Below, one piece after another: positions 582 through 20,019 of a stretch of 20,019 nt of DNA (position 1 is its first letter; the number at the start of each line of letters is the position of its first letter). A model generated the notes under the pieces. That model saw only the letters and a list, made by a program, of their open reading frames with translations, searched no databases and was not told the DNA's origin. Source of the DNA: a virus; UHGV virus genome UHGV-0180141, one strand, 5' to 3'. Made by a program: the position numbers and the translations under genes.

Positions 582-604
582 AATAACGATTAAGTGAGAT
601 GAAT

Positions 605-1093
605 ATGGCAGCACCAAAGGGCAACCGATTTTGGGAGGCCCGCAGTAGTCATGGGCGAAACCCTAAATTCGAATCGCCTGAGGCGCTGTGGGCTGCTTGT
701 TGTGAATACTTCGAGTGGGCTGATGATAACCCACTATGGGAGGGTAAGGTATTTTCATATCAGGGAGAAATAATTAAGGCTAATCTTCCTAAGATGCGAG
801 CCATGACTATTTCAGGATTGTGTACCTTCCTTGATATCACCAGGCAAACATGGGGAACCTTCCGGTCAATGGAAGGTTTTTCTGACGTCACATCACGAGC
901 GGAAGACATCATCTACGACCAGAAATTCTCTGGCGCAGCCGCTGACCTTCTCAACGCTAACATCATCGCCCGTGATTTGGGCCTCAAAGAGCAGTCGCAA
1001 GTTGAAGACGTGACACCTGATAAGGGAGATCGCGATAAGCGGCGCTCTCGTATCAAGGAGCTATTCAACCGTGGAACTGGACGCGATTCTTGA
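605..1093 (+). CDS. terS: terminase small subunit (P22 gp3-like)
   Basis: Protein [38 protein letters not shown]... matches my recollection of P22 gp3; 162 aa from ATG 605 (alternative in-frame ATG at 599); sits directly upstream of and overlaps the large terminase, as in P22. Confidence 0.85.
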
Positions 1094-2570
1094 TAACCTG
1101 AGCGACGAAGAGCAAATCGAATTGCTCGAGCTACTCGAAGAAGAAGAGAACTACCGGAACACACACCTGCTATATGAATTTACGCCATACAGCAAACAGC
1201 TTGAGTTCATCGACGCCGGGCATGACTATCCAGAGCGATGTTTTATGGCTGGTAACCAGATTGGTAAGTCATTTACTGGTGCTGCTGAAGTCGCGTTTCA
1301 CCTTACCGGGCGTTATCCGGGCACAAAAGGCTATCCTGCTGATGGTAAATATGGCGGTGAGTGGAAAGGTAAGCGTTTCTATGAGCCTGTTGTCTTCTGG
1401 ATTGGCGGCGAGACAAACGAGACGGTAACCAAAACGACTCAACGCATCCTGTGCGGTCGTATTGAAGAGAATGATGAACCGGGCTACGGTTCCATACCGA
1501 AAGAAGACATCATTAGCTGGAAGAAGTCTCCTTTCTTTCCGAACCTTGTTGATCATCTTCTGGTTAAGCATCACACGGCTGATGGCGTTGAAGATGGCAT
1601 TTCAATCTGCTACTTCAAGCCATACTCGCAAGGCCGTGCTCGCTGGCAGGGTGACACAATCCACGGCGTGTGGTTTGACGAAGAGCCACCATACAGCATT
1701 TATGGCGAAGGTCTTACCCGTACCAACAAATACGGTCAATTCTCAATTCTGACGTTTACCCCGCTGATGGGGATGTCTGACGTTGTTACCAAGTTCCTGA
1801 AGAATCCCAGCAAGTCGCAGAAAGTGGTCAACATGACCATCTATGACGCTGAGCACTACACAGACGAACAGAAAGAGCAAATCATCGCATCCTATCCAGA
1901 GCATGAGAGAGAGGCGCGTGCTCGCGGTATTCCTACGATGGGTAGCGGTCGAATCTTCCAGATACCGGAAGAGACGATTAAGTGTCAGCCGTTCGAGTGT
2001 CCTGATCACTTCTACGTAATTGGCGGGATGGATTTCGGATGGGATCACCCACAGGCGCAAGTTCAGCTTTGGTGGGATAAGGACGCAGACACAATCTACG
2101 TTTCACGCGTGTGGAAGGCGAAAGAAAAAACAGCCGTTCAGGCATGGGGAGCCGTTAAATCATGGGCGCATAAAGTGCCAACCGCATGGCCTCATGACGG
2201 AAACCAGCATGAGAAGGGCGGCGGTGAGCAGCTCAAAGGGCAGTATGCCGACGCTGGTTTTATGATGTTGCAGGAGCATGCGACATGGCCTGATGGCGGT
2301 AACGCTGTGGAGCCTGGCATCACTGAATTGCGCGACATGATGCTCGATGGTCGCTTCAAAGTATTCAACACCTGTGAGCCATTCTTTGAGGAGTTCCGCC
2401 TCTATCACCGTGATGAAAACGGGAAAATCGTCAAGCTTAACGACGACGTTCTCTCAGCCGTTCGCTATGCATACATGATGCGCCGCTTCGCAAAAATGAT
2501 GCGCGACATCAAAAAACCAAAAGAGAAAAAGATACCAGCCCCAATCAGGCCCATCGCACGGAGAACTTAA
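1071..2570 (+). CDS. terL: terminase large subunit (P22 gp2-like), GTG start
   Basis: 499 aa, the P22 gp2 length; Walker-A-like GNQIGKS near the N-terminus; AAGGAG upstream; start codon is GTG at 1071, overlapping the terS 3' end. Confidence 0.93.
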
Positions 2571-4736
2571 ATGGCCGACGAAAACAGACTCAATTCCATT
2601 CTGTGTAAGTTTGACGCAGACTGGATGGCGAGCGATGAAGCCAGAACCGAGGCGACAAATGACCTGTATTTTAGCCGAGTGTCGCAATGGGATGACTGGC
2701 TATCAAACTACACTACCCTGCAATATCGCGGACAATTCGATGTTGTTCGCCCGGTGGTCAGGAAACTGGTCGCAGAGATGCGCAGGAACCCTATCGACGT
2801 TCTCTTCCGACCCAAAGACGGCGCTAATCCTGATGCTGCCGATGTGCTGATGGGGATGTATCGTACTGATATGCGCCATAACACGGCAAAAATTGCCGTT
2901 AACGTTGGCGTTCGTGAGCAGATAGAGTCCGGCGTTGGTGCATGGCGTCTGGTCACGCAGTACGAAGACAACGATCCAACAAGCAACAATCAGGTAATTC
3001 GACGCCTGCCAATTCATGAAGCCTGCTCACACGTCATATGGGACGCCAACAGCAAGCAGATGGATAAGAGCGACGCTAAGCACTGCACGGTGATTAACGC
3101 TTTGTCACGCAATGGCTGGAAAGAGTTCGCAGAGGATTACGGTATTGATCCGGATACCTTGCCATCTTTCCAGAATCCGAACGATACATGGCTGTTTCCG
3201 TGGGTATCGAATGATGTCGTCTACGTCGCTGAGTATTACGAGGTCGAAGAGAAGAAAGAGAAAGTCTTCATCTACCGCGACCCACTGACAGGTGAGCCAG
3301 TCAGCTATTACCAGCAGGATATCAAAGACGTCATCGACGACCTGGCTAATCGTGGATTCATTAAGGTAGCAGAGCGTAAGGTGAAGCGTCGGCGTGTGTA
3401 TAAGTCGATTATCACCTGCACGCAGATACTGAAAGACCGCGAGAAGATAGCCGGAGAGCATATTCCAATCGTTCCAGTGTATGGCGAATGGTCATTCGCT
3501 GGTGACAAGGAGTGCTACGAAGGAGTGGTAAGGCTGACGAAAGACGGTCAACGCCTTCGTAACATGATCATGTCGTTCAACGCCGATATTGTTGCTCGTT
3601 CACCGAAGAAGAAACCGACCTTCTTCCCTGAGCAAATCGAAGGCTACGAATACATGTACGGTGGAAATGATGACTATCCGTACTATCTGCAGAACAGGAC
3701 CGATGAAAACGGTAACGACCTGCCGATTGGTCCAATCTCCTACATGGAAAACCCTGAAGTGCCGCAAGCCAACGCTTACATGCTTGAGGCTGCCACCAAC
3801 GCAGTGAAAGAGGTGGCTAGTCTTGGTGTGGATGCGCAGGCAGCAAACTCTCAGGTCGCTTTCGATACCGTCAATCAACTGAACATGCGGGCAGACCTTG
3901 AGACATACGTGTTTCAGGATAACCTGGCTACCGCAATGCGACGTGATGGCGAGATTTATGCCTCAATGGTCAATGATATTTATGACGTTCCTCGTCATGT
4001 AACGCTGACACTTGAAGATGGAAGCGAGAAAGACGTTCAACTCTATGCGCAAGTTGTCGATTACCAGTCCGGCAATGTGGTCACACTCAACGACATTCGC
4101 GGTCGCTATGAGTGCTATACAGACGTAGGACCATCCTTCCAGAGTATGAAGGAACAGAACCGCGCAGAGATTCAGGAGTTGCTCACCAAGGTTCCGCAAG
4201 GTACTCCAGAGTTCCAGATGCTGATGCTGCAATACTTCACGCTGCTTGACGGTAAAGGCGTCGAGATGATGCGAGAGTACGCGAACAAGCAACTGGTGAT
4301 GATGGGGCTGAAGAAGCCAGAAACACCTGAAGAGATGGAGATGGTACAGCAGGCTCAACAGCAGCCGCAGCAGCCATCAGCAGAGCAAATTCAGGCGCAG
4401 GGTATCCTTCTGCAAGGTCAGGCTGAATTGCTCAAGGCAGAGAACCAACAGGCGCAGATTCAGGTTGAAGCCGCCAAGGTTGAAGCCCAAAACCAACTCA
4501 ACGCCGCGAAGATTGCAGAAATCTTCAACAATATGGACCTCGACAAGCAGGCAGAACTGCGTGAGTACCTCAAGCTCGTAGGTCAATTCCAGCAACAGCG
4601 CAGCAAGGACGCTCGTGCTAACGCTGAGCTGCTTCTTAAAGATGCAGACCAGACTCATTCACAACGCATGGATTTCGCGAATCTTATGCGTCAAGTTCAA
4701 ATCCCCTCCGGCGGAGTAGCCGAGACACCTCAATAA
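2571..4736 (+). CDS. portal protein (P22 gp1-like)
   Basis: 721 aa (P22 portal is about 725); ATG abuts the terL stop (TAAATG); long Q/A/E-rich helical C-terminus consistent with the P22 portal barrel; position after terL. Confidence 0.93.
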
Positions 4737-4749
4737 GAGAGAGTTAATC

Positions 4750-5661
4750 ATGGACCAAACCACCGACATTCAGGCTTCTGAAGAATTAACCCTGCCCGGC
4801 AATCATGCAGCGGCATCTGCTGATGGCTTAGTTGTCGATAATGCCAACGACAACGCAGGTCAGGAAGAAGGCTTCGAGATTGTCCTGAAAGACGATGAGA
4901 AACCAAAACAAGACCCGGCAACTAATGCTGAATTTGCCCGTCGCCGCATCGAACGCAAACGCCAGCGTGAGCTTGAGCAGCAGATGGAAGCGGTTAAGCG
5001 TGGAGAATTGCCGGAGCACCTGCGGGTGAACCCTGAGTTACCGAAACAACCAGACCCTAACGATTATCTTTCCGAAGATGCACTGGCTAAGTACGACTAT
5101 GACCAGAGCCGCGCACTGGCTGCCTTCCAGCAGGCAAATAGTGAATGGCAGATCAAGGCTATGGACGCACGAAGCCAGGCTGTCGCCGAGCAGGGTCGCA
5201 AAACTCAGGAGTTCACCCAGCAATCAGCGCAATACGTCGAGGCAGCCCGTAAGCACTACGACGCAGCGGAAAAGCTCAATATCCCTGACTATCAGGAGAA
5301 AGAGGATGCATTCATGCAACTGGTGCCGCCAGCAGTCGGTGCCGACATCATGCGCCTCTTCCCGGAGAAATCCGCCGCTCTCATGTATCACCTTGGTGCT
5401 AATCCTGAGAAAACACGCCAGTTGCTGGCGATGGACGGGCAATCCGCGCTGATTGAACTCACTCGACTGTCAGAACGTTTAACTCTCAAGCCTCGAGCCA
5501 AGCATGTTTCAGAAGCCCCGTTACCTGATGAGCCAATTCAGGGACACGCTGTTGCTGCAAATATCTCTGCGATTGAAAAGCAGATGGAAGCGGCAGCAAA
5601 CAAAGGGGATGTAGAGACATACCGCAAGCTCAAGGCGCAACTGAATAAAGGAATTCGATAA
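4750..5661 (+). CDS. scaffolding protein (P22 gp8-like)
   Basis: 303 aa, the P22 gp8 length; highly charged, helical, Ala/Glu/Lys/Gln-rich; sits between portal and coat. Confidence 0.88.
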
Positions 5662-6183
5662 TTATTTCGATATCGTGATGTTGTTTTCCTCGTCAAACTT
5701 TCTGATTACTTCTTTCGCCTCTTCGAATGAAGAACATACTTTTTGCACTCTTGCATTAAGCAGTCGCTTATGAGCGATCCATCTTTTCCGCGTGTTGCAA
5801 AAGTAAACTCCAGATATTCCGCTGGAGTTATTTTTAGATAGTTTGATTCTATTCCTTTGGTTTGCTGATTTTTTCACAAGACGAAGATTTTCAATTCTGT
5901 TGTCGTGGCGAATCCCATTTATATGGTCAATTTCCATGCCTTCTGGAATATCTCCGTTAAACATTACCCATACGATGCGGTGTGCTAGCCACTTAATGCC
6001 GTTAATTCTTATGCGGATATATCCATTGCTTTCTAAAAGACCAGCAACTTTCCCAGCGTGTTTTGCATTCCAAACGTTGTGATAGTTGCGATTCTTTTTG
6101 TTGTTGAAAAATTCAGAGCTTCTGGCTTTCCAAACCAAAGAACCATCGCGGTATTCGAAGTATTCATTCAGTTCCATGCTCAT
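5662..6183 (-). CDS. HNH homing endonuclease (HNH_3 domain plus C-terminal AP2-like DNA-binding domain)
   Basis: Protein contains NGYIRIRINGIKWLAHRIVW...IDHINGIRHDNRIENLRLV (HNH_3-type motif with His/Asn catalytic residues) followed by SGISGVYFCNTRKRWIAHK (AP2-like). Antisense to the late operon, AT-rich relative to its flanks, and its stop abuts the scaffold stop. Confidence 0.85.
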   Translation of the reverse strand: MSMELNEYFEYRDGSLVWKARSSEFFNNKKNRNYHNVWNAKHAGKVAGLLESNGYIRIRINGIKWLAHRIVWVMFNGDIPEGMEIDHINGIRHDNRIENLRLVKKSANQRNRIKLSKNNSSGISGVYFCNTRKRWIAHKRLLNARVQKVCSSFEEAKEVIRKFDEENNITISK

Positions 6184-6250
6184 AACCCTAATGCGCTATA
6201 TGTTGATATAACAATAGTATAGCACATAAAGAAAGTAAGGTATTCAATAT

Positions 6251-7546
6251 ATGACTCTCAAAGAAGGGCAGTTAGTTACTTACGCTATCGATGAAATCAT
6301 CGAAACCGTCCAGAACTTGACGCCAATGGCGTCCAAAGTGACAAAATACACCCCCCCGGCAGAATCCATGCAACGTTCAAGCAACACCGTGTGGATGCCT
6401 GTTGAGCAGGAAGCGCCAACTCAGACTGGCTGGGATTTAACTGGCAACGCTACCGGGATTCTGGAACTCTCCGTGAAATGCAACATGGGTGATCCGGATA
6501 ACGATTTCTTCGAGCTTCGTGCAGATGACCTGCGTGATGAGCGTTCTTACCGTCGCCGCATCCAGGCATCAGCCAAAAAACTGGCGAATAACATTGAGTC
6601 AGCGATTGCCAAACAGGCAACTGAAATGGGCTCGCTTGTTGTTCACGATACCCGCGCAATTGGTCCATCTACTGGCCTGTCTGGCTGGGATTTTGTGTCT
6701 GATGCAGAGCGCCTGATGTTCTCCCGTGAGCTAAACCGCGATATGGGCATCAGTTACTTCCTGAACCCTGACGATTACCGCAAAGCAGGCCGCAACCTGG
6801 TAGATGGTGACATCTTTGGGCGCGTTCCTGAAGAAGCGTATCGCAACGGTACTATTCAGCGTCAGATTGCTGGCTTTGATGAAATTCTTCGCTCACCGAA
6901 ACTTCCGGCAGTTACCAAGTCAACCGCTACTGGTGTAACTGTTTCTGGTGCGCAGAAGTTTAAGCCGCAGGCATACACCCTTGATACCGATGGTAACAAA
7001 GAGAACGTCGACAACCGTGTTGCAACGGTGACCGTATCCTCCACCACCGGATTTAAGCGCGGCGACAAAATCAGCTTCACTGGCGTGAAATTCCTGTCTC
7101 AGATGGCGAAGAACGTGCTGACTGATGACGCGACTTTCTCAATCACCCGTGTGATCGATGGTACTCACATCGAAATCACGCCGAAGCCTATTGCGCTGGA
7201 TGACGCGTCACTGACAAAAGAAGAGAAGGCTTACGCTAACGTAAACACCTCTCTTGCTGATACCACTCCGGTAAACGTTCTGAACGTGGCAACAACCACC
7301 GCTAACGTGTTCTGGGCTGATGACTCAATCCGTCTGCTGTCTCAGCCGATCCCGGTAACCCATGAGCTGTTTGCTGGCATGAAAACGTCTTCCTTCAGCA
7401 TTCCTGGTATTGGTGTTAACGGCATCTTCGCAACGCAGGGTGATATCAACACTCTGTCTGGTAAGTGCCGTATTGCTGTGTGGTATTCAGCATGTGCTGT
7501 ACGACCAGAGGCAATTGGTGTTGGTCTGCCTAACCAGACCGCGTGA
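6251..7546 (+). CDS. major capsid (coat) protein (P22 gp5-like)
   Basis: 431 aa (P22 coat is 430); conserved blocks recognisable from P22 coat ([52 protein letters not shown]). Confidence 0.95.
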
Positions 7547-7590: not shown

Positions 7591-7827
7591 ATGACACACA
7601 TGATCTTTCGCCATGGCAACATGAAGAAGTGGAAAGGCGTTGGATACGACTTTGAAATCGTGAAAGCCGAAGAGCTTCAGGAATATCTGGATGCTGGCTG
7701 GTTTGCACATCCTGATGATCTTCTGAAGGATGTTGCAGAGCCAGAGCCAGAGCAAGAAGAAAAGCAGCGTAAAAAGCCTGATCGAAAACCTAAGGCGGCA
7801 TCAGATGAACCTGACAACGAAGGGTGA
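7591..7827 (+). CDS. hypothetical small acidic protein (78 aa) between coat and gp4-like gene
   Basis: ATG at 7591 preceded by GGAGACAAGC; the track ORF 7543..7827 begins inside the terminator, so the internal ATG was chosen. Overlaps the gp4 start by about 23 nt. Sf6-type genomes carry a small gene at this position (from memory, not verified). Confidence 0.45.
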
Positions 7828-8305
7828 TTTAGTCCTTGCGGCATTACGTAAGCTCGGTGTGGCATCAAATGCCACGTTAACTGATGTCGAACCGCAGTCT
7901 ATGGAAGACGGCGTCAACGACCTTGAAATGATGATGGCTGAATGGCTTGGCGGTGATGCGTCACCTGGGATCAACGTTGGCTACATTTTTGCTGATGCAG
8001 ATGTCGCTCCGGATCCGGGCGATGAGCACGGTTTATCAAATAACGCTATCAATGCCGTCATTTTCAACCTTGCCTGCCGCATTGCTCCGGATTATGCGCT
8101 GGAAGCGTCAGCAAAACTTATAACCACTGCCAGATACGGGAAAGAGCGACTCGTCAAACTGTCTGCAATGGACAGAGCAAAAGCCGCTAAATGTAAGTCC
8201 GGTTATCCAAACCGTATGCCTGTTGGCAGTGGAAACCAGTTGGCGAAGTGGAACGGTTGGAATTACTTCCACCGAAAGGAGCCTTGCGATAATGGGAGCG
8301 AATAA
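7805..8305 (+). CDS. head-completion / tail accessory protein (P22 gp4-like)
   Basis: 166 aa from ATG 7805; [41 protein letters not shown]... and ...[14 protein letters not shown]... resemble P22 gp4 as I recall it; the track ORF begins upstream at 7730 but homology begins at 7805. Confidence 0.85.
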
Positions 8306-9723
8306 TGCCGATTCAGCAACTTCCGCTTATGAAAGGTGTCGGCAAAGACTTTAGAAACGCTGACTATATCGACTATCTACCAGTGAATATGTTGGCTACA
8401 CCCAAAGAAATCCTCAACAGCAGCGGATATCTTCGCTCATTCCCGGGCATTGCCAAACGTTCTGATGTGAACGGTATATCGCGCGGCGTCGAGTACAACA
8501 TGGCGCAGAGTGCTGTATATCGCGTGTGTGGGGGCAAGCTGTATAAGGGCGAAAGTGAGGTCGGTGATGTTGCCGGAAGTGGTCGCGTATCAATGGCGCA
8601 TGGTCGAACATCACAGGCGGTAGGCGTTAACGGGCAACTGGTCGAGTATCGCTATGATGGCACGGTTAAAACCGTCTCAAACTGGCCTGCGGACAGCGGA
8701 TTCACGCAGTATGAGTTAGGCTCAGTCCGCGACATTACGCGCTTACGTGGGCGTTATGCGTGGTCAAAAGACGGCACTGATTCATGGTTCATCACTGACC
8801 TTGAAGACGAATCGCATCCTGACCGATACAGCGCACAATATCGCGCAGAGTCGCAGCCTGACGGCATCATCGGCATAGGTACATGGCGAGACTTCATAGT
8901 CTGCTTTGGTTCGTCGACGATTGAATATTTCTCCCTGACAGGTGCAACCACCGTTGGTGCCGCTTTGTATGTCGCACAGCCATCACTGATGGTGCAGAAA
9001 GGTATTGCCGGAACTTACTGCAAAACGCCGTTTGCTGATTCCTATGCGTTTATCAGCAATCCGGCAACAGGTGCGCCGTCTGTGTATGTCATCGGTTCCG
9101 GTCAGGTGTCACCAATCGCCAGCGCGAGCATTGAGAAAATCCTCCGCTCCTACACTGCTGATGAACTGGCTGATGGCGTGATGGAATCGTTGCGGTTTGA
9201 TGCGCATGATTTGCTGATTATCCATCTTCCGCGCCATGTTCTCGTGTACGACGCATCTTCAAGTGCCAATGGTCCGCAATGGTGCGTGTTGAAAACTGGC
9301 TTATATGATGATGTGTACCGCGCTATCGACTTCATTTACGAAGGCAATCAGATAACGTGCGGCGATAAGCTGGAGTCCGTGACCGGGAAATTGCAATTCG
9401 ATATCAGTAGCCAGTACGACAAGCAACAGGAACACCTGCTGTTTACTCCACTGTTCAAAGCGGATAACGCCAGAGTTTTCGACCTTGAGGTTGAATCGTC
9501 AACTGGCGTTGCGCAGTACGCCGACCGCCTGTTCCTCTCAGCAACCACTGACGGCATCAATTACGGGCGTGAGCAGATGATTGAGCAGAATGAACCGTTC
9601 GTTTACGACAAACGCGTTTTGTGGAAGCGAGTTGGGCGCATCAGGAAAAATGTCGGCTTCAAATTGCGCGTTATTACGAAGTCACCAGTCACTCTGTCTG
9701 GCTGCCAGATAAGGATTGAGTAA
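8305..9723 (+). CDS. tail accessory / head-completion protein (P22 gp10-like)
   Basis: 472 aa, the P22 gp10 length; start overlaps the gp4 stop (TAATG); conserved gene order. Confidence 0.88.
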
Positions 9724-10571
9724 TGGCGGATTCGAATCTCAATGTGCCGGTAATCATCCAAGCTACGCGGCTCGATACATCAGTTCTTCCACGCAATATC
9801 TTCTCGCAGTCGTATCTGCTTTACGTTATCGCACAGGGTACAGATGTTGGTAACGTGGCTAACAAGGCCAACGAGGCCGGACAGGGCGCTTATGATGCAC
9901 AGGTCAGGAACGATGAGCAGGATGTGATTCTTGTCGATCACGAAATTCGACTGGCATCAGCTGAAGCTAAGATTCAGGACCACGAAACAAGGATCACTAA
10001 CGCAGAAGCGGCGATAGTCGGCCTTGACTCACGATTAACGACAGCAGAAAACGATATTGATTACCTGACGGATGAAGTTGTCGCCATTCAAAACACGCTT
10101 TCAGACCATGAAACGCGCATTGATGCTCTGGAGTATGCCACTACTCGCAAAAAGTCAGAGGTTGTTTACTCTGGCGTATCTGTAACCATCCCGACAGCGC
10201 CGACCAACCTTGTTAGCCTGCTGAAAACGCTCACGCCGTCATCCGGGACGTTGGCACCATTCTTCGACACTGTTAACAACAAGATGGTTGTGTTCAACGA
10301 GAACAAAACCTTGTTCTTCAAGCTGTCGATCGTCGGGACGTGGCCCAGCGGAACCGCCAACAGGTCAATGCAGCTAACCTTTTCCGGCTCTGTTCCTGAC
10401 ACACTGGTAAGCAGTCGCAACTCGGCGACAACGACCGATAACATCCTGTTAGCTACGTTTTTCAGCGTGGATAAAGACGGCTTTCTTGCCGCAAATGGCA
10501 GTACGTTAACCATCCAGTCAAATGGTGCGGCGTTTACTGCCACAACCATCAAGATAATCGCGGAGCAGTAA
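9723..10571 (+). CDS. tail needle / cell-puncturing protein (P22 gp26-like N-terminus with an Sf6/HK620-type C-terminal knob)
   Basis: N-terminus [43 protein letters not shown]...[18 protein letters not shown] matches P22 gp26 as recalled; heptad-like HETRI.../AENDI... repeats; 282 aa rather than P22's 233, with a beta-rich C-terminal roughly 120 aa. Confidence 0.88.
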
Positions 10572-11026
10572 TGATTCAGTTCAAACCAACGCGAAACATC
10601 GACCTGATCGAAGCAGTCGGAAATCACCCTGACATTATTGCCGGGAGCAACAACGGTGATGGATACGACTACAAACCTGATTGCCGTTACTTTGAGGTGA
10701 ACGTGCACGGGCAGTTCGGCGGCATTGTTTACTATCAGGAGATTCAGCCGCTTACATTCGATTGCCACGCCATGTACCTGCCAGAGATTCGCGGATTCAG
10801 CAAGGAAATCGGGCTGGCGTTCTGGCGATACATTCTGACTAACACCACCGTTCAGTGCGTCACATCGTTCGCTGCACGCAAATTCCGCCACGGTCAGATG
10901 TATTGCGCGATGATTGGCCTTAAGCGTGTAGGAACCATCAAGAAATACTTCAAAGGCGTGGATGACGTGACGTTTTACAGCGCCACACGCGAAGAACTAA
11001 TCGACTTCCTGAATCACGGGAGATAG
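10571..11026 (+). CDS. virion assembly protein (P22 gp14-like)
   Basis: 151 aa; positional equivalent of P22 gene 14 between needle and ejection-protein genes; start overlaps the needle stop. Confidence 0.7.
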   Translation: MIQFKPTRNIDLIEAVGNHPDIIAGSNNGDGYDYKPDCRYFEVNVHGQFGGIVYYQEIQPLTFDCHAMYLPEIRGFSKEIGLAFWRYILTNTTVQCVTSFAARKFRHGQMYCAMIGLKRVGTIKKYFKGVDDVTFYSATREELIDFLNHGR

Positions 11027-11028
11027 CC

Positions 11029-11724
11029 ATGTTATATGCATTTAAGCTGGGCAGAAAACTGCGCAGCGAGGAACCTTATTGTCCTGAAAAAGGCGGGAAA
11101 GGTGGCAGCTCTGATAAAAGCGCAAAGTATGCAGCAGAAGCTCAGAAGTATGCCGCAGACCTGCAAAATCAGCAGTGGCAGACGATCATGAAAAACCTTG
11201 CTCCGTTCACGCCGCTTGCGGAGCAGTATGTTAACCAGCTTCAGAATCTTTCCAGTTTAGAAGGTCAGGGGCAGGCACTTAATCAGTATTACAACTCTCA
11301 GCAGTATAAAGACCTTGCAGGTCAGGCGCGTTACCAGAGTCTTGCTGCTGCGGAGGCGACGGGTGGATTGGGTTCCACTGCAACCGGTAATCAGTTAGCA
11401 ACAATCGCACCAACGCTTGGTCAGCAGTGGCTGTCTGGTCAGATGAACAACTACCAGAATCTGGCAAATATTGGTCTTGGCGCACTGCAAGGTCAGGCAA
11501 ACGCCGGGCAGACATATGCCAACAACATGAGTCAGATTTCGCAGCAAAGTGCGGCTCTTGCAGCGGCAAATGCCAACAGACCATCAGCAATGCAATCTGC
11601 TATTGGCGGAGGTGCGTCTGGTGCTTTTGCTGGGGCTGGACTTGCGAAATTAATTGGTTCATCAACTCCGTGGGGTGCTGGTATCGGTGCTGGTATCGGT
11701 CTGCTTGGTTCACTGCTTTATTAA
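11029..11724 (+). CDS. ejection (injection) protein (P22 gp7-like)
   Basis: 231 aa (P22 gp7 about 229); Q/N/A-rich with a Gly-rich hydrophobic C-terminal tail (GGGASGAFAGAGLAKLIGSSTPWGAGIGAGIGLLGSLLY); synteny. Confidence 0.8.
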   Translation: MLYAFKLGRKLRSEEPYCPEKGGKGGSSDKSAKYAAEAQKYAADLQNQQWQTIMKNLAPFTPLAEQYVNQLQNLSSLEGQGQALNQYYNSQQYKDLAGQARYQSLAAAEATGGLGSTATGNQLATIAPTLGQQWLSGQMNNYQNLANIGLGALQGQANAGQTYANNMSQISQQSAALAAANANRPSAMQSAIGGGASGAFAGAGLAKLIGSSTPWGAGIGAGIGLLGSLLY

Positions 11725-11734
11725 GGGGTAATCA

Positions 11735-13051
11735 ATGGCTACGTGGCAACAGGGTATTAATTCTGGTGGTTTTCTGGCTGGCATCGGTACGCAAAATGAG
11801 AATGCGCCAAAGGCAAGCGACATTAACGCAACGCTTGGTCTGATCCGCGAAAACAATGAACTGGCTCGCTCAGGTGCAAATAACGTTGGGCTGACTGCTT
11901 TGCAAGGCCTTTCAGGCATTGCGGAGTCTCAGCGGCAGAAAGAATTTCAGCAGGCGTACGCTAATGCTTATGCGTCTGGTGATCGCAGTGCTTTGCGTCA
12001 GTTGGCTACTCAATATCCAGAACAGATTGAATCCGTTCGTAAAGGCATGGGATTCATTGATGAAGATCAGCGTAATTCTATCGGCACCTTAGCGGCTGGC
12101 GCACGCCTTGCGTCATCGTCTCCTGATGCGATGGCTAACTGGCTGCAATCTAACGCCGGTGAGTTAGCTCGTGTTGGCGTTAATCCTCATGACGTCGCTC
12201 AGATGTACCAACAGAACCCGCAGCAGTTCGGCGAATTTGTCGATCACCTGGGGATGGCCAGTCTCGGACCCGAAAAATACTTTGACCTACAGGATAAAAT
12301 GCAGGGTCGCCAGGTTACCATGCGCGGTCAGGATCTGGATTCGCAAACCGCCGCCCGGAATCAGGCAATCACAATGCGCGGACAAGATATCCAGGCGAAT
12401 TTAGGTCAACAGCGCATTAATCTGGACGCAGAAACAAACCGCATTAACTACGAAAATAAGCGCCTTGACCGGATGCTATCAGCAGAAACTAACGACCTGA
12501 AGCGCCAGGAAATACAGAGCCGCATAGCAGCCAACAACCAGCAGTTGCAGCAGAAGCAGCAAGCGCTAAATGATGGCTACAAAGACGGCATCAACACTCT
12601 CACAACCAGCATGTTCACTCTGAACGATATCGTTAGTTCTCCTTCACTTAAGAGCATTACAGGCTTACGTGGAGTAATCCCCAACGTTCCAGGCTCACAG
12701 GCTGCAGACACTCAGGCACGACTTGATACCTTTAAATCCCAAGCATACCTGACAGCGGTTCAGGCCATGCGAGGCATGGGCGCACTTTCTGATGCCGAGG
12801 GCAAAAAGCTCGACCAGGCTGTTGGTTCGCTGCAGAACTCGCAGAGCGAGGAGTCCTTTCGTCGCAACGCTGGCGTCATCCTGAACACACTCAACCAGAA
12901 GCGTAATGAGGCGGTTGGTAAGTACGTTCAGCAAAACGGTATCAAGCGAGTGGAAGCGCCTCAGGCTTCTATAGATTACCTGAAGCAGCACCCCGAGCTG
13001 TCAATCGACTTCATTAATCGCTACGGATATCTTCCATCTTTGGGGCAGTAA
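11735..13051 (+). CDS. ejection (injection) protein (P22 gp20-like)
   Basis: 438 aa; position between gp7-like and gp16-like genes; low-complexity Q/A/N-rich composition typical of ejection proteins. Confidence 0.78.
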   Translation: MATWQQGINSGGFLAGIGTQNENAPKASDINATLGLIRENNELARSGANNVGLTALQGLSGIAESQRQKEFQQAYANAYASGDRSALRQLATQYPEQIESVRKGMGFIDEDQRNSIGTLAAGARLASSSPDAMANWLQSNAGELARVGVNPHDVAQMYQQNPQQFGEFVDHLGMASLGPEKYFDLQDKMQGRQVTMRGQDLDSQTAARNQAITMRGQDIQANLGQQRINLDAETNRINYENKRLDRMLSAETNDLKRQEIQSRIAANNQQLQQKQQALNDGYKDGINTLTTSMFTLNDIVSSPSLKSITGLRGVIPNVPGSQAADTQARLDTFKSQAYLTAVQAMRGMGALSDAEGKKLDQAVGSLQNSQSEESFRRNAGVILNTLNQKRNEAVGKYVQQNGIKRVEAPQASIDYLKQHPELSIDFINRYGYLPSLGQ

Positions 13052-15787
13052 ATGGCTAATTACCGTGATTTGTTAGAGCAGGCTGGCGCACGTTACGGTG
13101 TGCCAGAAGGGTTGATGACTGCACTGGGTGCCAAGGAGTCTTCTTACAACCCTGCCGCAGTAAGCTCCGCCGGGGCTGTAGGATTGACTCAGGTCATGCC
13201 TGGGACATGGCGTGATATGGGTTATACCGATGAGCAAATGCAAAACCCCGAATATCAGGCTGACGCTGGCGCGCGCTATCTGGCAAAGATGTACCAGCAG
13301 TTTGGTAACTGGCGTGACGCTCTTCAGGCTTATCACGACGGCCCCGGCAACGTTATGAAGGCAAAGCGTGGTGAATATACGCCAGGACCTGAAGGCCGCG
13401 GTTACGTTGATGATCGCTTTGCTCAATGGGCGGGTGACCCGGTGACAGACTCAACAGTCGAACAGCGCGCCACCTCTGCAAAGGTACATCCTCAGCAAGA
13501 CCCTAACAACCCGTTTGCACAACTGGAAGCACAGTCATCCGAACAAGTATCGGCATCAGGCGTGCAGTCAGACCCAAATAATCCATTTGCTCAGATTGAG
13601 CAGCAGGCAGCCAGTCAGCAGCCACCTCAACCCGTAAGTTCTGTCGCACCGAAACCTGTTCAGCAACAAACAGTTAATCAGGCCAATAATGCACCAACAC
13701 GGGAAGAACCATCATTGATGCAACAAGCTGGTGATTGGCTCACAGGTGGTCAAAGTGCAGGGCAAATTGCAGAGCAGGCTGGTCGTGGTCTGGTAAACAT
13801 ACCATTTGACGTATTGCAGGGTGGCGCAAGTCTGATTAATGCAATCAGCCAGGGGCTTGGTGGCCCCAAGGTTTTGGACGATGTCTATCGTCCAGTAGAT
13901 CGACCGACAGACCCTTATGCGCAAGCTGGAGAGTCAATAGGCGGTTATCTTGTTCCTGGAGCAGGAGTAGCTGGAAACATGGTCATTGGTTCTCTCGCTG
14001 ACGCGGCGAATCAACGGGGTGATTTTGCCGAAAATGCCGCTATTAATGCCGGACTTAACATTGCTACGCATGGCCTGATAAATGGCGTTACCCGTGGTGT
14101 TCGTGGCGCATCAAATATAATTAGTGGCAATAAAACATCTGCACAGAGAGCGACCACTGCGCCAACAGAAACATCACCATTCTCCGGTGATGCCGCTGCA
14201 GCAACAAATCCTGCGGTTCATGCCGCAGAGGCAAGAGCAGCACAAGGTGTACCAATGACGCCTGCGGCGAGGGACCCAGAGGAGGTCGTTCGCACAGTAG
14301 CAGCACAAAAAAGGCCAAATCTCGCTTCATCGCTTGATGAACTAGATATCAATCCTCAGGCTGAAGTTCTGGAGTCTGCTGAAAGGCTTAATGTTGATTC
14401 ATTACTCCCTTCACACTTTTCCGGGAACGAGCAATACAAGGCAGTTGAGCAAGCAATCAAGTCCCGTGCGGGTTCTGCTCTACGGGTGCAGGAAAATGAA
14501 GCAATCAGGCAACTAGCACAGGGCGCGGGGGAGATAATTGATCGCGTTTCCGGTGCAAAAGATGCTCTTGGTATGAGCGACAAGTTTATTGATACGATCA
14601 ATGGAAGAATGTCTGCGCTGATGAAACGAAGCGACCAGCTTTATCGCAATGTTGAAAAGGCGATGCCTGCAGGTGCAAAAATTGATGCGCCATCAACAAG
14701 GTCAATGCTCAAACAGGTGGCAGAAGATCTTGGCGGGATGAAAAACCTTGACCCTATTGAAAAGAGAGTCTTTCGGGCAGTTAATCCAGGCAAGAACGGC
14801 GCATTAACTTATGCAAATCTCAATAAGCAACGACGACTTGTTGGTGATGCACTTCATAAGAAGTCTGGACCATATAAAGATGCTGATCGCGCTGCTTTAT
14901 CGAGGCTTTACGGTTCGCTCGCCGATGATCAAAAGGCGGCGCTGTCAGAGACAAATGCATTACGTGATTTTGAAGTTGCTCAGAGGCTTGTTCAGATGCG
15001 AAAAAGCATGGAAGAGCAAATGATTAATCTAACTGGCAGAACACTGAACGGTGATGTTTCTCGCAAAGCAACTACAGCACTACAGGCAATGTCGAAAGGC
15101 GATGCCAAAGGATTTCGTGAATTGATGCAAAACACGCCGTCCAGGAAGCTAAGAACCGAGCTACTGGGAACAGGTCTTCGGGATATGCTTTCGAACGGAA
15201 AACGTGGCGCTGATTTTAATCCTGCAGGGTTTGCTGACTGGTATCAAAACATGTTAGCAAACGGGCAGATGCGCAATCTTGCCCGACATTTACCAAAAGA
15301 GACTATGTCAGGTCTGAACGATGTATATAAGGTCGCAAAGGCTATCAAAGACGCAAAATCTTACGAGATAACTACAGGAAGACTAAACGAGTTCGTCAAA
15401 CGGTTTAATCGCGTCACTGCGGCAAATGAATTTGTTGCTAACCATGCCCAACGCATTGGCACTGCGGTTGGTTCAACTGTGTCAGGACCGTTCAGTGCAG
15501 TAGGTGCTGTTGCTGGGTCAGAAATTGGGGCAAAAGTCGCCAGCAAAATCAGGGCGATGGGCGGCGCTGAATCAATTGAATCTGCAGAAAAGCTAATTAG
15601 CTCACCAGAATTCCAGAAAGCAGCAAGGCTGGCAGTAAAACAAGCACCAGAAAGCATCGTTGATACAACTGTAAGACGCTCTTCTGCTTGGCGCTCGTTT
15701 TACAACTCACTTCCAGAATCAGATAAGAAAACCATATCAAGGCTAGGCATCATGTACTGGATGAACAGTGATGATAACCAGAAGTAA
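13052..15787 (+). CDS. ejection protein (P22 gp16-like) with N-terminal lytic transglycosylase (SLT) domain
   Basis: 911 aa. N-terminal ~110 aa carries SLT-like motifs ([10 protein letters not shown] with candidate catalytic Glu, [19 protein letters not shown]); then a Q/P-rich linker with a tandem DPNNPFAQ(L/I)E repeat, then a long helical/Ala-Gly-rich body. Last gene of the plus-strand string, start abutting the gp20-like stop. Confidence 0.85.
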
Positions 15788-15975: not shown

Positions 15976-16461
15976 TTATCTAATGTTGCTGCTACTGTTG
16001 CATGTGACGGTATTTCCAAATCCTGAATTGCAGTTTGTATATGTGTCAACGCGCGTTGGGTAAGGTTGAGTTATAACAGGCTGGCGCGCTTTTTGCTCGA
16101 TCGCTTGCATTGTGTTTACAGCCTGATAATTCAATAAAGCCTGCTGGAATGCTTGGCTTTGTGCTATTTGTTGGGCTTGTTCTTGGCTTTGTAATTGAAC
16201 ATAAAGATTCTGAAGCTCAAGTCTTGCCTGCGCGTCACTTATCTTGCCATCATCGACACCTTGCCCGAGCATCTTCGCAGCAAGGACATATAACTTAGGT
16301 GTTGGTGCTGATGCCATGCGTGAGTCGTTCTTCACACTGGCATCAAGGCAATTAGCCATATCGCTAAGCTTTGGATAGCGTTGCTCGCAACTTGCCTGAT
16401 AGTCGCTTACTTTTGCGCACCCAGCCAGCAGAAGCGGGATAATTAACAGTGATTTTTTCAT
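15976..16461 (-). CDS. predicted lipoprotein (161 aa) of unknown function; possible superinfection-exclusion moron
   Basis: Start chosen at internal ATG (rc of 16459-16461) giving MKKSLLIIPLLLAGC..., a signal peptide with lipobox LAGC; strong RBS TAAGGAGAG 8 nt upstream. Mature part is Q-rich/helical with a Cys-containing C-terminus. The track ORF extends 17 codons upstream to 16512 without an RBS. Confidence 0.72.
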   Translation of the reverse strand: MKKSLLIIPLLLAGCAKVSDYQASCEQRYPKLSDMANCLDASVKNDSRMASAPTPKLYVLAAKMLGQGVDDGKISDAQARLELQNLYVQLQSQEQAQQIAQSQAFQQALLNYQAVNTMQAIEQKARQPVITQPYPTRVDTYTNCNSGFGNTVTCNSSSNIR

Positions 16462-16495
16462 ATAATTAACTCTCCTTAGTTTTGCGCAGGATACC

Positions 16496-16861
16496 ATGAA
16501 AAAAGTTAACATTGGAAACGTACCAAAGATGCTCGTTCCGCTCTTTGAGAGCGGTACAATTGTGTTTTGTAGAGACTTTCCAGAATGGCAACGCCTGCAT
16601 CAAAAACTTGGCGTTGACGTGCATGACTCGGACGCCAACGGAGCGTCTCATACAATGAGCAGCGAGAATGGTGTTTTGCATGTGATAGGCGTGTTCAATG
16701 GCAAACTATCTACTATTGCCCATGAGTGCGCTCACATGGCATTCGATATCTGCTCAAGGGTCGGCGTTGATGTTGAACCAGGAAGAGCCAACGAGACTTA
16801 CTGCTACTTAATGAGCAGGCTTGTTGAGTTCTGCGAGCGACATATCAAAAAGCCGGAGTGA
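16496..16861 (+). CDS. small HExxH-motif protein (121 aa), putative ImmA/IrrE-like zinc metallopeptidase
   Basis: Contains ...VLHVIGVFNGKLSTIAHECAHMAFD..., fitting the (F/T)(I/L)AHE..H pattern of M78/ImmA-type peptidases, with candidate third ligands (Glu/Asp) downstream. AGGA 5 nt upstream of ATG; divergent from the lipoprotein gene with only 34 bp between start codons. Confidence 0.6.
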   Translation: MKKVNIGNVPKMLVPLFESGTIVFCRDFPEWQRLHQKLGVDVHDSDANGASHTMSSENGVLHVIGVFNGKLSTIAHECAHMAFDICSRVGVDVEPGRANETYCYLMSRLVEFCERHIKKPE

Positions 16862-16872
16862 CCCGGCTTGAT
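16851..16872. terminator. putative bidirectional terminator between convergent genes
   Basis: Hairpin AGCCGG-agtgac-CCGGCT (16851-16868) with T-rich sequence on both strands; overlaps the stop codon of the HExxH gene. Confidence 0.45.
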
Positions 16873-16874
16873 TA

Positions 16875-17054
16875 TTACTTTTTGCTGTCTGGAGTTCGCT
16901 TATCCAATACCCAGCCATGACCTGGCTTTGTTGTTGGTGGAAGCCTTTCATTGTCCTTGACGGTGGCAAAATTGTCTTTCTTACCGCCGCGTGGGCCAAC
17001 TTCTTGGTATATTCCGCCGTTTTTTCCCGTGTTTTCACCTGGTTTTTTCGCCAT
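16875..17054 (-). CDS. hypothetical small Gly/Lys-rich protein (59 aa)
   Basis: Start at internal ATG (rc of 17052-17054) giving MAKKPGENTGKNGGIYQEVGPRGGKKDNFATVKDNERLPPTTKPGHGWVLDKRTPDSKK, with RBS GAGGT 6 nt upstream; terminator hairpin downstream; candidate sigma70 -35 TTGACT (rc of 17114-17119) upstream. Confidence 0.45.
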   Translation of the reverse strand: MAKKPGENTGKNGGIYQEVGPRGGKKDNFATVKDNERLPPTTKPGHGWVLDKRTPDSKK

Positions 17055-17144
17055 GATATACCTCAACATGCACCCGTTATTGGGCGATTAAATATTGATC
17101 TCATTTTATAAGTAGTCAATATGGCCCAGGTAAATGCAAAAATT

Positions 17145-17168
17145 AACCCACCGTCAGGTGGGTTTTTT
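17145..17168. terminator. putative bidirectional rho-independent terminator at the 3' end of the mnt-like gene
   Basis: Hairpin AACCCACC-gtca-GGTGGGTT (17145-17164) followed by TTTTTT on the plus strand and by TTAATTTTTGCATTT on the minus strand; the mnt-like stop codon lies in the loop. Confidence 0.55.
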
Positions 17169-17474
17169 GTTTAGCAGTTCTCTCAACTTTTCGTTCTGCT
17201 CTCTGAACTTTTCCTGTATTTCTTTTTGCATGGCGATAACCTGGGCTTGAAGTTGAACTAGCGCATCAACATTTAGCGGAACCGAGACGCTGTTGATTTT
17301 GTCTGCTATTTCCCCAAGAGTATTTTCTGCATTCAAGGCATCTTCCAGTATCTGCACAATCTCTGAGTTCATAGAGCGCCCGTTTCGTTTGGCTCTCTCC
17401 GCAATCGCGTCCCTCATCCCGTCAGGGAAACGCACAACAAACTTTTCGTAATCTTTAACCTGCTTTTCAGCCAT
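17154..17474 (-). CDS. mnt: Mnt-like ribbon-helix-helix repressor (106 aa)
   Basis: N-terminus KFVVRFPDGMRDAIAERAKRNGRSMNSEIVQILEDAL matches the Arc/Mnt RHH fold signature (NGRS(M/V)NSE); helical C-terminal extension; GAGGTG RBS 5 nt upstream; divergent from the arc-like gene as in P22 immI. Confidence 0.8.
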   Translation of the reverse strand: MAEKQVKDYEKFVVRFPDGMRDAIAERAKRNGRSMNSEIVQILEDALNAENTLGEIADKINSVSVPLNVDALVQLQAQVIAMQKEIQEKFREQNEKLRELLNKKPT

Positions 17475-17493
17475 AACATCACCTCAAAAAAAA

Positions 17494-17556
17494 CAATGAT
17501 GGCATATTGCTATTTATATTCAATGATGGCATATTGCTTTCAAGGCATAATGCCAT
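17494..17556. promoter_or_regulatory. candidate immI operator/promoter region (Pant/Pmnt with Arc/Mnt operator repeats)
   Basis: Perfect 18-bp direct repeat CAATGATGGCATATTGCT at 17494-17511 and 17521-17538 (27-bp period), plus inverted element GGCAT-a-ATGCC at 17544-17554 sharing the ATGGCAT core; candidate -10 CATAAT (17546-17551) for the rightward arc-ant promoter and TTGAAA/AATATA-like elements on the minus strand for mnt. Confidence 0.5.
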
Positions 17557-17576
17557 TACGTAAAAAGGAGTGATCA

Positions 17577-17738
17577 ATGGAAAAGAATGAAGTGAAGACA
17601 ACTCTTCGGTATCCGTACCGTTTTAAGGAGGAGGTGAAACGCATCGCTAAGGAAGAGGGGATGTCAGAAAACTCAGTGTTGGTTCAGGGACTTGCTTGGT
17701 GGTTGAAGTACCGGGAGAAAATGCGGAATGCTCTCTAA
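17577..17738 (+). CDS. arc: Arc-like ribbon-helix-helix repressor (53 aa)
   Basis: Hand translation MEKNEVKTTLRYPYRFKEEVKRIAKEEGMSENSVLVQGLAWWLKYREKMRNAL; 53 aa as in P22 Arc, with an RHH-like beta-strand/helix pattern; AAAGGAG RBS 6 nt upstream; directly upstream of ant. Below the ORF-track size cutoff. Confidence 0.72.
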   Translation: MEKNEVKTTLRYPYRFKEEVKRIAKEEGMSENSVLVQGLAWWLKYREKMRNAL

Positions 17739-17809
17739 AAATAACGAAGCCCCGACAGCGGGAACTGGCGAGGCTTCTACATCAACAAATCTGATCGGGA
17801 AATATTGAC

Positions 17810-18688
17810 ATGAAAAGTATAGCAAAGGCACAAAACGATTTCACCATCTTCAAATTCGGCGACAGTGAAATCCGCGTCATCAACAAGTGCGGTGAGCCGT
17901 GGTTTGTAGCAAAAGATGTTTGTGATGCTTTAACTCTGACTAACTCACGCAAGGCGCTTACTGCACTTGATGACGATGAGAAGGGAGTAACTTTAAGTTA
18001 CACCCTTGGTGGTGAGCAGAATTTAAGCATTGTGAGCGAATCAGGTATGTATACATTGGTTCTGCGCTGCCGCGATGCAGTCAATAAAGGTTCAGTCCCG
18101 CACAAATTCCGCAAGTGGGTAACAGCAGAAGTTCTGCCTTCAATTCGCAAACATGGCGAGTATGTAAAAGGAAAGAAAACCACTGTTGAGGAAAGAACAC
18201 CGCTACGAGATGCAGTAAACATGCTGGTAGGAAAGAAAGGACTTCGCTATGACGATGCATACAATATGGTTCATCAGCGTTTTGGTATTGACAGCATTGA
18301 TGAACTTTCAATTGAACAAATCCCGCTGGCCGTAGAGTACATCCACAGGGTAGTGCTTGAAGGTGAGTTCATTGGCAAACAAGAGAAGAAAACCAACGAG
18401 CTTTCTGCAAAAGAAGCAAACAGCCTTGTATGGCTATGGGATTATGCCAACCGCTCACAGGCATTATTCCGCGAATTGTATTCGGCGCTAAAACAAATTC
18501 AATCGAACTATTCCGGCAGATGCTACGACTACGGTCATGAATTCTCGTATGTTATCGGAATGGCGAGAGACGTTTTAATCAATCACACACGAGATGTTGA
18601 TATTAATGAGCCAGACGGACCAACGAATCTTTCCGCATGGATGAGACTTAAGAATAAAGAATTACCTCCTTCAGTACATAACTACTGA
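17810..18688 (+). CDS. ant: antirepressor Ant (BRO-N/KilA-N-type N-terminal domain)
   Basis: 292 aa (P22 Ant about 300); N-terminal [18 protein letters not shown]...[10 protein letters not shown]...[17 protein letters not shown] is the Bro-N/antirepressor signature; follows arc. Confidence 0.85.
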
Positions 18689-18706: not shown

Positions 18707-18729
18707 ACCCAGCTTCGGCTGGGTTTTTA
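18707..18729 (+). terminator. rho-independent terminator after ant
   Basis: Hairpin CCCAGC-ttcg-GCTGGG (18708-18723) followed by TTTTT. Confidence 0.6.
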
Positions 18730-18786
18730 TGTCCAAAATTCACCGTAGCCATGCTTTGGCGATTCCTTGTATCTGGAGTAAATTAA

Positions 18787-20019
18787 ATGACAGACATTAC
18801 AGCTAATGTGATTGTATCGATGCCTTCGCAACTCTTCACTATGGCGCGTTCTTTTAAAGCCGTAGCCAATGGCAAAATTTATATCGGTAAAATTGATACT
18901 GACCCGGTAAATCCTGAAAACCAGATTCCGGTTTATGTAGAGAACGAAGACGGTTCTCACGTTCCTGTTTCTCAACCAATCATTATTAACGCTGCTGGTT
19001 ACCCGGTATATAACGGACAGATTGCCAAGTTCGTTACTGTACAGGGCCATTCTATGGCTGTTTACGATGCGTATGGGGCACAGCAGTTTTATTTTCCAAA
19101 TGTGCTGAAGTATGATCCGGATCAGCTAAGACATGAGCTAGCGTCGGAAGCGGGAACAACTTTAATAGGGAAGGGTGATCGAACTCTTGAAGAGTACTTA
19201 GAATCAAGCAAGGAAGATTTTGATAACTCATGGAAGAGATATGTAGGTAAATCTACAACGACACAAAAAGATAGCGCATACTCTGGAGCAGCTCACTACC
19301 AACCAGTTAGCGATGATGGGAGCACAATTGGTAATTATACATTTGAATCACCGGTGATTGTTGACTTCTCATCTACATCAGATTGTGTTATGCCAGATTC
19401 TGGTGTCGTTTTCAAAATGGGAGCTAATGGACTTACAAGTGGTAATTATTTTTCTCAAGATAATTACCACTTAAAAAATGTAACGGCAATTGGCGGTACC
19501 CCTGAAATTGTTACATTTGAACCATACACAGGATTGACAGCACTAGTAGATGGTGTTCGTATTATAAATAATGGCTCTCCAGACAAGACCGCTATTAATT
19601 TTAAAGGACAGAACTGGTGGCCTACAGTATCTAATAATATATTTAAAGATTATACAGATAAAAGAGGAAATTTTTGCAAGGCAATAGATGACGGAGGAGA
19701 TTCATCTATAAGAAGGAGTGGGAATAGTAGATTGCTTTTCACTGGAAATAAAGTCTACTTTGGTGGGGATGCTCTTGGTGGTACGATGTTGAAAGCCAGC
19801 GCTGTCTTTAATATTATAAAAGATAATGCCTGTGAACACGGAGAGAACGCGATTGTGTTTGAGTACCCATCATCATTCTCAGTTATCGACGGACTTTACA
19901 CAGAATGTTCTTTTGGTGGTGGTAATCAGATAGTAATTGGTGACAAAGAACCTGATCCTAATATTGCAACAATGAATATGATTGGAATAACTATTAAGAA
20001 TGTTTATTTCAATAATCAT
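18787..20019 (+). CDS. tailspike protein (P22 gp9-like head-binding domain plus divergent receptor-binding domain), 3'-truncated by window end
   Basis: N-terminus [50 protein letters not shown]...VLKYDPDQ closely matches the P22 tailspike N-terminal domain as recalled; after about residue 110 the sequence is unrelated and AT-rich; GGAG RBS upstream; no stop before the window end. Confidence 0.9.

Follow-up and report, generated by a model that had tools for sequence, protein, structure and literature searches.

We find that a gene on the plus strand of a 20,019-nucleotide stretch of viral DNA (the window, which here always means this whole stretch) very probably encodes a trimeric tail needle of the Sf6 "knob" type, belonging to a P22-like (Lederbergvirus-type) temperate podovirus or prophage of Escherichia coli; we place the probability of this identification at roughly 0.94. 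It is based on the open reading frame and its domain layout, near-identity to solved structures, the ligand residues, gene order and occurrence in E. coli prophages, and we see nothing in the sequence that contradicts it. The protein would be trimeric, plug the tail channel, be released and have a kinetic role as described in published work on Sf6, HS1 and P22. It is an ordinary, previously named protein, and even its exact sequence is already known: the identical 282-aa sequence appears in NCBI, UniRef and elsewhere under the name "tail needle knob protein [Escherichia coli]" (BDW54171.1 and others), the label that the gene bears in hundreds of E. coli chromosomes. The gene, its parts and its junctions, all on the plus strand, are as follows.

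9711 to 9725, plus strand: Shine-Dalgarno-like AAGGA (9711-9715) and TAATG junction, from sequence inspection
9723 to 10571, plus strand: tail needle gene, orthologue of Sf6 gene 9 and P22 gene 26; ATG start, 282 codons plus TAA
9723 to 9902, plus strand: N-terminal plug domain, residues 1-60, from identity to Sf6 gp9 and P22 gp26 and the match to 8EAP_B
9903 to 10142, plus strand: coiled-coil shaft, residues 61-140, about 11 heptads, from heptad layout and alignment to the helical core of P22 gp26
9933 to 10100, plus strand: diverged shaft cassette, residues 71-126, of the same length and heptad phase as in Sf6
10143 to 10568, plus strand: C-terminal knob, TNF-like jelly-roll, residues 141-282, from PF16532 and identity to Sf6 (140/142 residues)
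10562 to 10573, plus strand: GGAG (10562-10565) and TAATG junction, from sequence inspection

Domain layout and family identity of the needle

The needle reading frame is intact, running from its ATG through 282 amino acids with neither frameshift nor premature stop, and it contains the C-terminal peptide that had been quoted in the earlier note on this DNA. It is tightly joined to its neighbors on both sides. The stop codon of the upstream gp10 homologue (9721-9723) shares one base with the needle ATG (9723-9725), with the AAGGA lying eight bases upstream of that ATG, and the needle stop (10569-10571) shares one base with the ATG (10571-10573) of the downstream gp14-like gene. Single-base overlaps also occur in Sf6, where the end of gene 8 and the start of gene 9 both fall at 8254 and the end of gene 9 and the start of gene 10 both fall at 9102.

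Family searches assigned the protein to the Sf6-type needles. Pfam returned PF16532 Phage_tail_NK ("Sf6-type phage tail needle knob") with an E-value of 5.7e-109 and a score of 361.9 bits, the cut-off being 27, and in PHROGs the "tail needle knob" family phrog_1030 covered residues 1-282 (E 2.3e-133), with the "tail needle protein" family phrog_1219 matching residues 1-146 only (E 1.6e-54). A search of NCBIfam with the needle yielded no specific model, only coiled-coil noise (PspA, SMC; 15-18 bits) far below threshold. Five further Pfam families (DUF4349, XhlA, ATG16, CCDC22_CC and PUMA_CC) scored below their gathering cut-offs on the coiled-coil shaft and were rejected as compositional matches. 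Using phmmer against all PDB chains, we found that residues 131-282 match the Sf6 gene 9 knob 3RWN (E 6e-90, with 150/152 residues identical) and also the HS1 knob 4K6B (E 1.8e-89), both crystal structures at about 99% identity, that residues 1-144 match the P22 gp26 structures 2POH, 3C9I, 4ZKP and 5BU5 (E from about 5e-45 to 1e-48), and that a shorter stretch, residues 3-64, aligns with gp26 in a P22 tail complex (8EAP_B, E 1.8e-27). Matches of the strength seen with 3RWN and PF16532 lie well outside what chance would produce.

The N-terminal part of the protein is shared with both reference phages. Residues 1-70 are 100% identical to Sf6 gp9, and an ungapped comparison with P22 gp26 gives an identity of 81.7% for residues 1-60, 42.5% for residues 61-140 and 59.3% for residues 1-140 as a whole. 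P22 gp26 (2POH, 3C9I) has a homologous plug and an 11-heptad shaft in the same register, its gene likewise lying between genes 10 and 14, and the earlier proposal that the N-terminal ~140 residues correspond to the plug and coiled coil of gp26 is borne out by the match of residues 1-144 to these two structures. Past residue ~143-146, homology to the P22 gp26 tip was not found in the PDB matches, in a MAFFT alignment or with PHROG 1219, and the alignment there is gapped and essentially unrelated. In P22, residues 141-233 make up a non-knob tip whose sequence is unrelated to residues 141-282 here; rather than aligning with this helical tip, or continuing as coiled coil throughout, the C-terminus of the present needle is predicted to be almost all beta.

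Similarity to Shigella phage Sf6 gp9 (3RWN) extends over the entire protein, which in Sf6 is also 282 aa long, occupies the equal gene position and has the same three-part layout. The alignment of the two, which the earlier note had proposed as a check and which bore out its identification, is gap-free, with 86% identity overall, 98.7% over residues 127-282 and 98.6% over residues 141-282. Apart from shaft residues 71-126, described below, Sf6 gp9 differs at two knob positions, T257A and S270A, where the present knob has A257 and A270 in place of the Sf6 threonine and serine. All of the residues that contact L-glutamate are kept (in Sf6 numbering, E146, K200, S248, D250, L255 and K277), as is the Ser-Arg-Asn triad of the distal tip, S231-R232-N233 by alignment with Sf6. 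Both the list of L-glutamate contacts and the phosphate-binding role of this triad are taken from the structural paper on the HS1 and Sf6 knobs (PMC3741392). The knob of the E. coli prophage HS1 (4K6B) is essentially identical and has Ala at the 270-equivalent position, as here; the HS1 needle differs in being 317 aa long, in having 16 shaft heptads as against 11, and in carrying Ser where both the present needle and Sf6 have Asp134.

We modeled residues 127-282 with AF2 from the single sequence, obtaining eight strands and one short helix, almost all beta, in a model of moderate quality (pLDDT 64, pTM 0.63, four segments below 50) that is suited to fold matching and not to residue-level conclusions. 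Comparing this model to the PDB with Foldseek placed 3RWN and 4K6B on top (TM 0.75, E ~1e-19), followed by TNF-family proteins (Eiger, EDA-A1, 4-1BBL), C1q/C1QL and PRD1 P5, with Eiger TNF, EDA-A1, C1QL and PRD1 P5 reaching probabilities of 0.99-1.0 and TM values of about 0.41-0.47. The jelly-roll/TNF-like fold that had been anticipated for the C-terminal region was thus recovered in the prediction, and the predicted beta fold and the match to 3RWN and 4K6B together uphold the view of a 282-aa protein with a beta-rich C-terminus replacing the P22 tip. Crystals of the homologous Sf6 and HS1 knobs contain homotrimeric TNF-like, seven-stranded jelly-rolls (PMC3741392). With PRD1 P5, the adenovirus fibre knob and TNF/C1q domains the knob has a jelly-roll trimer fold class in common, at a sequence identity of 7-16%.

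A P22-like late operon around the needle gene

The plus strand of the window carries a P22-like late operon with intact reading frames throughout and with the gene order of Sf6 and P22. The genes around the needle gene are as follows.

599 to 1093, plus strand: small terminase
1071 to 2570, plus strand: large terminase
2571 to 4736, plus strand: portal
4750 to 5661, plus strand: scaffold
6251 to 7546, plus strand: coat
7730 to 8305, plus strand: gp4-like protein
8305 to 9723, plus strand: tail hub / packaged-DNA stabilisation protein of 472 aa, homologue of P22 gp10 and Sf6 gp8 (PF11134 Phage_stabilise, E 6.5e-300; synteny)
10571 to 11026, plus strand: DUF2824 protein of 151 aa, homologue of P22 gp14 and Sf6 gp10 (PF11039, E 3.1e-53; synteny)
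11029 to 11724, plus strand: gp7-like ejection protein (Pfam)
11735 to 13051, plus strand: gp20-like ejection protein (Pfam)
13052 to 15787, plus strand: ejection protein of 911 aa in the gp16 position (Pfam and position)

The needle gene lies between the hub gene and the gp14-type gene, in synteny with Sf6, P22 and an E. coli prophage. Pfam matches for the three ejection genes were to P22_gp7 (gp7-like gene, E 9.5e-132), Inj_translocase (gp20-like gene, E 3e-69) and an SLT domain (gp16-position gene, E 3.3e-25). Beyond these genes are an immI-like region and then the start of the tailspike gene, inside which the window ends. An Escherichia host is supported by the matches of the window to E. 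coli prophages and phages, as well as by the E. coli label of the exact protein: identity to E. coli chromosomal prophages is 95-96% over up to 79% of the window, and to Escherichia phage APC_JM3.2 it is 96% over 70%. No record covering at least 80% of the window was found in the E. coli chromosomes or in the phage collection, a level of coverage that is the usual mosaicism of the P22-like phage group.

A close relative of the needle itself is that of the prophage in E. coli ET151 (WP_326390058.1), which is 98.9% identical over its full length, shaft cassette included, with three substitutions relative to it (V68A, S234A, A257T) and with flanking genes that are alike. The two differ further away, the head genes of ET151 being of Sf6 type whereas the terminase, portal, scaffold and coat genes in the window have P22 lengths.

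Given how common prophage remnants with needle genes are, the gene might belong to a decayed one that no longer builds virions. P22-like remnants of several genes, an Sf6-type needle gene among them, are known from more than 100 E. coli genomes (PMC3741392), and among the 913 of 5,426 complete E. coli genomes in which we matched any part of the needle gene, many matches were partial. The intact late operon within the window counts against such a remnant, since it runs uninterrupted from the terminase subunits through portal, scaffold, coat, gp4, gp10, needle, gp14 and the three ejection proteins to the immI-like region and the tailspike start; the needle frame is undamaged, and the sequenced phage APC_JM3.2 is close to the window over the share given above. 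We therefore hold a remnant to be very improbable. The knob-coding region is also overlapped by a long open frame of 241 aa on the opposite strand (10166 to 10891, minus strand), which could be taken for the real gene or for a second one. We treat this antisense frame as spurious, because it has no family match (none in PHROGs, and in NCBIfam only 17 bits against a cut-off of 376) and carries no annotation in the RefSeq records of Sf6, P22 or E. coli; moreover, it spans two strongly supported plus-strand genes, and that it should be a gene is barely conceivable. The Sf6-type needle remains the reading that we adopt.

A diverged cassette in the needle shaft

Over residues 58-147 of the needle, I, L or V occupies one fixed position in 10 of the ~11 heptads, and both the phase and the length of the heptad shaft are identical to those of Sf6 and P22, whose shafts have eleven heptads each (PMC3741392). 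Within this conserved frame, residues 71-126 have diverged, sharing 33.9% of their amino acids with Sf6, 39.3% with P22 and 100% with the ET151 prophage. Nucleotide identity to Sf6 falls from ~98% to ~50% between nucleotides ~210 and ~376 of the gene and then returns to ~96%, without any indel, and conserved DHExRI-type motifs flank the diverged segment. Because phase and length are as in Sf6 and P22, we interpret segment 71-126 as an in-register replacement of part of the shaft.

The cassette is present in 60 of the 5,426 complete E. coli genomes (~1%), always in a gene annotated as tail needle knob protein, so this shaft allele is not new and already resides in E. coli prophages. In the phage collection, searched at blastn sensitivity, the cassette matched one unannotated 2.3-kb E. 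coli O26 phage fragment only, and a distinct donor lineage was not found at that sensitivity. Mosaicism of the shaft has been documented before, in that the HS1 shaft is 67% identical to that of Sf6 and has 16 heptads (PMC3741392). Conceivably, though we think it unlikely, the cassette is a functionally distinct shaft allele that would change, for instance, how stiff the needle is, how ions bind in the core of the coiled coil or how fast the needle is released, and T257A, two residues from the glutamate-contact residue L255, might similarly tune the pocket.

Host range, needle release and the role of the knob

The weakest part of the original finding is the suggestion that the knob module may shape host range, because knob swaps infect normally, host-range mutations lie in the tailspike and the knob is nearly invariant; published experiments do not support it. 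It would have the knob act as a secondary-receptor-binding module that helps to set host range, which would fit a needle tip that is placed for early contact with the outer membrane (PMC3741392; for P22, cryo-ET to the extent that it is summarised in PMC9400499), a fold like that of the knobs with which adenovirus and PRD1 P5 bind receptors, a likeness noted in PMC3741392, and the distribution of Sf6-type knobs, which among P22-like phages occur in Escherichia and Shigella phages only and in 0 of 48 surveyed from Salmonella (PMC3741392). However, P22 chimeras with the Sf6 or HS1 knob have normal titre and infectivity on Salmonella, P22 with a foldon as its needle tip is viable, though less infective, and the authors of these experiments judged a host-specificity role of the tip to be unlikely (PMC3741392). 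When host-range mutations of Sf6 were selected by experimental evolution, all of them fell in the tailspike gene, including the region of its distal tip that binds OmpC (PMC9400499). Furthermore, knob sequences vary by no more than 4.9% across 69 P22-like phages with differing hosts and O-antigen types (PMC3741392), unlike what a diversifying receptor-binding protein would display. Taken together, we find a receptor-binding, host-selecting knob quite improbable; contact of the needle with the envelope is plausible, and the confinement of this knob type to phages of Escherichia and Shigella, with its absence from Salmonella P22-like phages, hints at some host-linked constraint. PRD1 P5 and adenovirus-type knobs are demonstrated receptor binders; for the Sf6-type knob we know of no receptor.

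Experiments on the needle tip bear on a different step of infection. Mutations in the glutamate pocket had no measurable phenotype, and changes of the needle tip slow K+ efflux. The authors concluded that the tip influences how fast DNA is delivered, perhaps by mechanical means, and explicitly allowed for a function that the knob might have only in its native host, Shigella or E. coli (PMC3741392).

Transferring these observations to the present needle, we propose that residues 1-60 would act as a plug that closes the channel of the hub (the gp10 homologue, encoded directly upstream) and retains the packaged DNA in the head. In the needle trimer, the hexameric hub channel is shut by a quasi-six-helix bundle built from helical hairpins at the N-termini (PMC9728967), and the base of the needle is the plug by which DNA is retained (PMC3741392). 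Residues 61-140 would form a trimeric coiled-coil shaft of 11 heptads that reaches past the tailspikes, and residues 141-282 a TNF-like jelly-roll knob, likewise trimeric, whose subunit interfaces would each have an L-glutamate pocket. At the start of infection the tailspikes would bind and cut the O-antigen, upon which the needle would contact the outer membrane and come free. Its release would unblock the channel, through which the DNA and the ejection proteins, whose genes lie a little way downstream, could then pass. As summarised in PMC9400499, binding and hydrolysis of O-antigen by the tailspikes go with a reorientation of the particle; the needle touches the surface and leaves the virion, and the DNA then has a conduit made of the ejection proteins. 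Exit of the ejection proteins from the virion after needle release is described there and in PMC3741392. Within this sequence, the knob would most likely act on the kinetics or mechanics of the needle release step, rather than on the choice of host.

The tail needle is among the best characterised of phage tail components, with crystals of the Sf6 and HS1 knobs, cryo-EM of the Sf6 tail and swap genetics in P22, and the finding matters little beyond correct annotation. For that annotation, the knob should not be labeled or read as a determinant of host range, as experiments link host range to the tailspike and DNA-delivery kinetics to the needle tip. For the P22-like phages, the needle described here is a further case of intragenic mosaicism, in which the plug is conserved, the shaft exchangeable and the knob nearly invariant.

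Late operon composition

The head-gene products encoded in 599..7546, namely the large terminase (499 aa), portal (721 aa), scaffold (303 aa) and coat protein (431 aa), are similar in length to those given by the P22 gene spans (approximately 499, 725, 303 and 430 aa, respectively). The corresponding Sf6 lengths are less like those of the window, and yet the tail needle of the window is of the Sf6 type. The presence of P22-like head-gene lengths and an Sf6-type needle in one operon makes the late operon itself a mosaic, in which the head genes are of the P22 type and the needle is of the Sf6 type.

The exact needle protein (9723..10568) was found by protein look-up in a one-member cluster of a 90%-identity collection, despite the existence of a 98.9%-identical protein in E. 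coli ET151 (WP_326390058.1); this single membership probably stems from the clustering procedure and not from biology.

Additional domains in the head and ejection genes

Two genes carry recognizable enzymatic domains:

5662..6183, minus strand, 172-aa ORF carrying an HNH_3 endonuclease domain (PF13392, E 3.9e-22)
13052..15787, plus strand, 911-aa protein in the P22 gp16 / Sf6 gp13 position, with an SLT lytic transglycosylase domain at its N-terminus (PF01464, E 3.3e-25)

The HNH_3 ORF lies between the scaffold (4750..5661) and coat (6251..7546) genes, on the strand opposite to both, whereas these genes abut in P22 and are separated by only 11 bases in Sf6; it looks like a homing-endonuclease-type insertion into the head-gene cluster. 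The 911-aa protein is longer than its counterparts in P22 (gp16, 609 aa) and Sf6 (gp13, 665 aa), and its E. coli prophage relatives are annotated as 'transglycosylase SLT domain-containing protein'. The product would be an ejection protein bearing a predicted peptidoglycan-cutting domain.

The immI-like region and the tailspike

An immI-like region (15976..18688) lies 3' of the ejection genes, followed by a frame that remains open at the window end:

15976..16512, minus strand, ORF roughly in the position of P22 sieA
16496..16861, plus strand, ORF also roughly in the sieA position
17154..17474, minus strand, Arc/Mnt-like ribbon-helix-helix ORF
17810..18688, plus strand, antirepressor-like ORF (domains Bro-N and P22_AR_C)
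18727..19050, minus strand, listed antisense ORF near the tailspike 5' end
~19003..20019, plus strand, tailspike start, continuing past the window end

Neither ORF in the sieA position had a Pfam match. The final open frame includes a P22-type tailspike head-binding-domain motif and then continues into different sequence, identifying it as the predicted start of a tailspike truncated by the window end; the antisense ORF probably overlaps its 5' part. The tailspike is likely the true host-range determinant.
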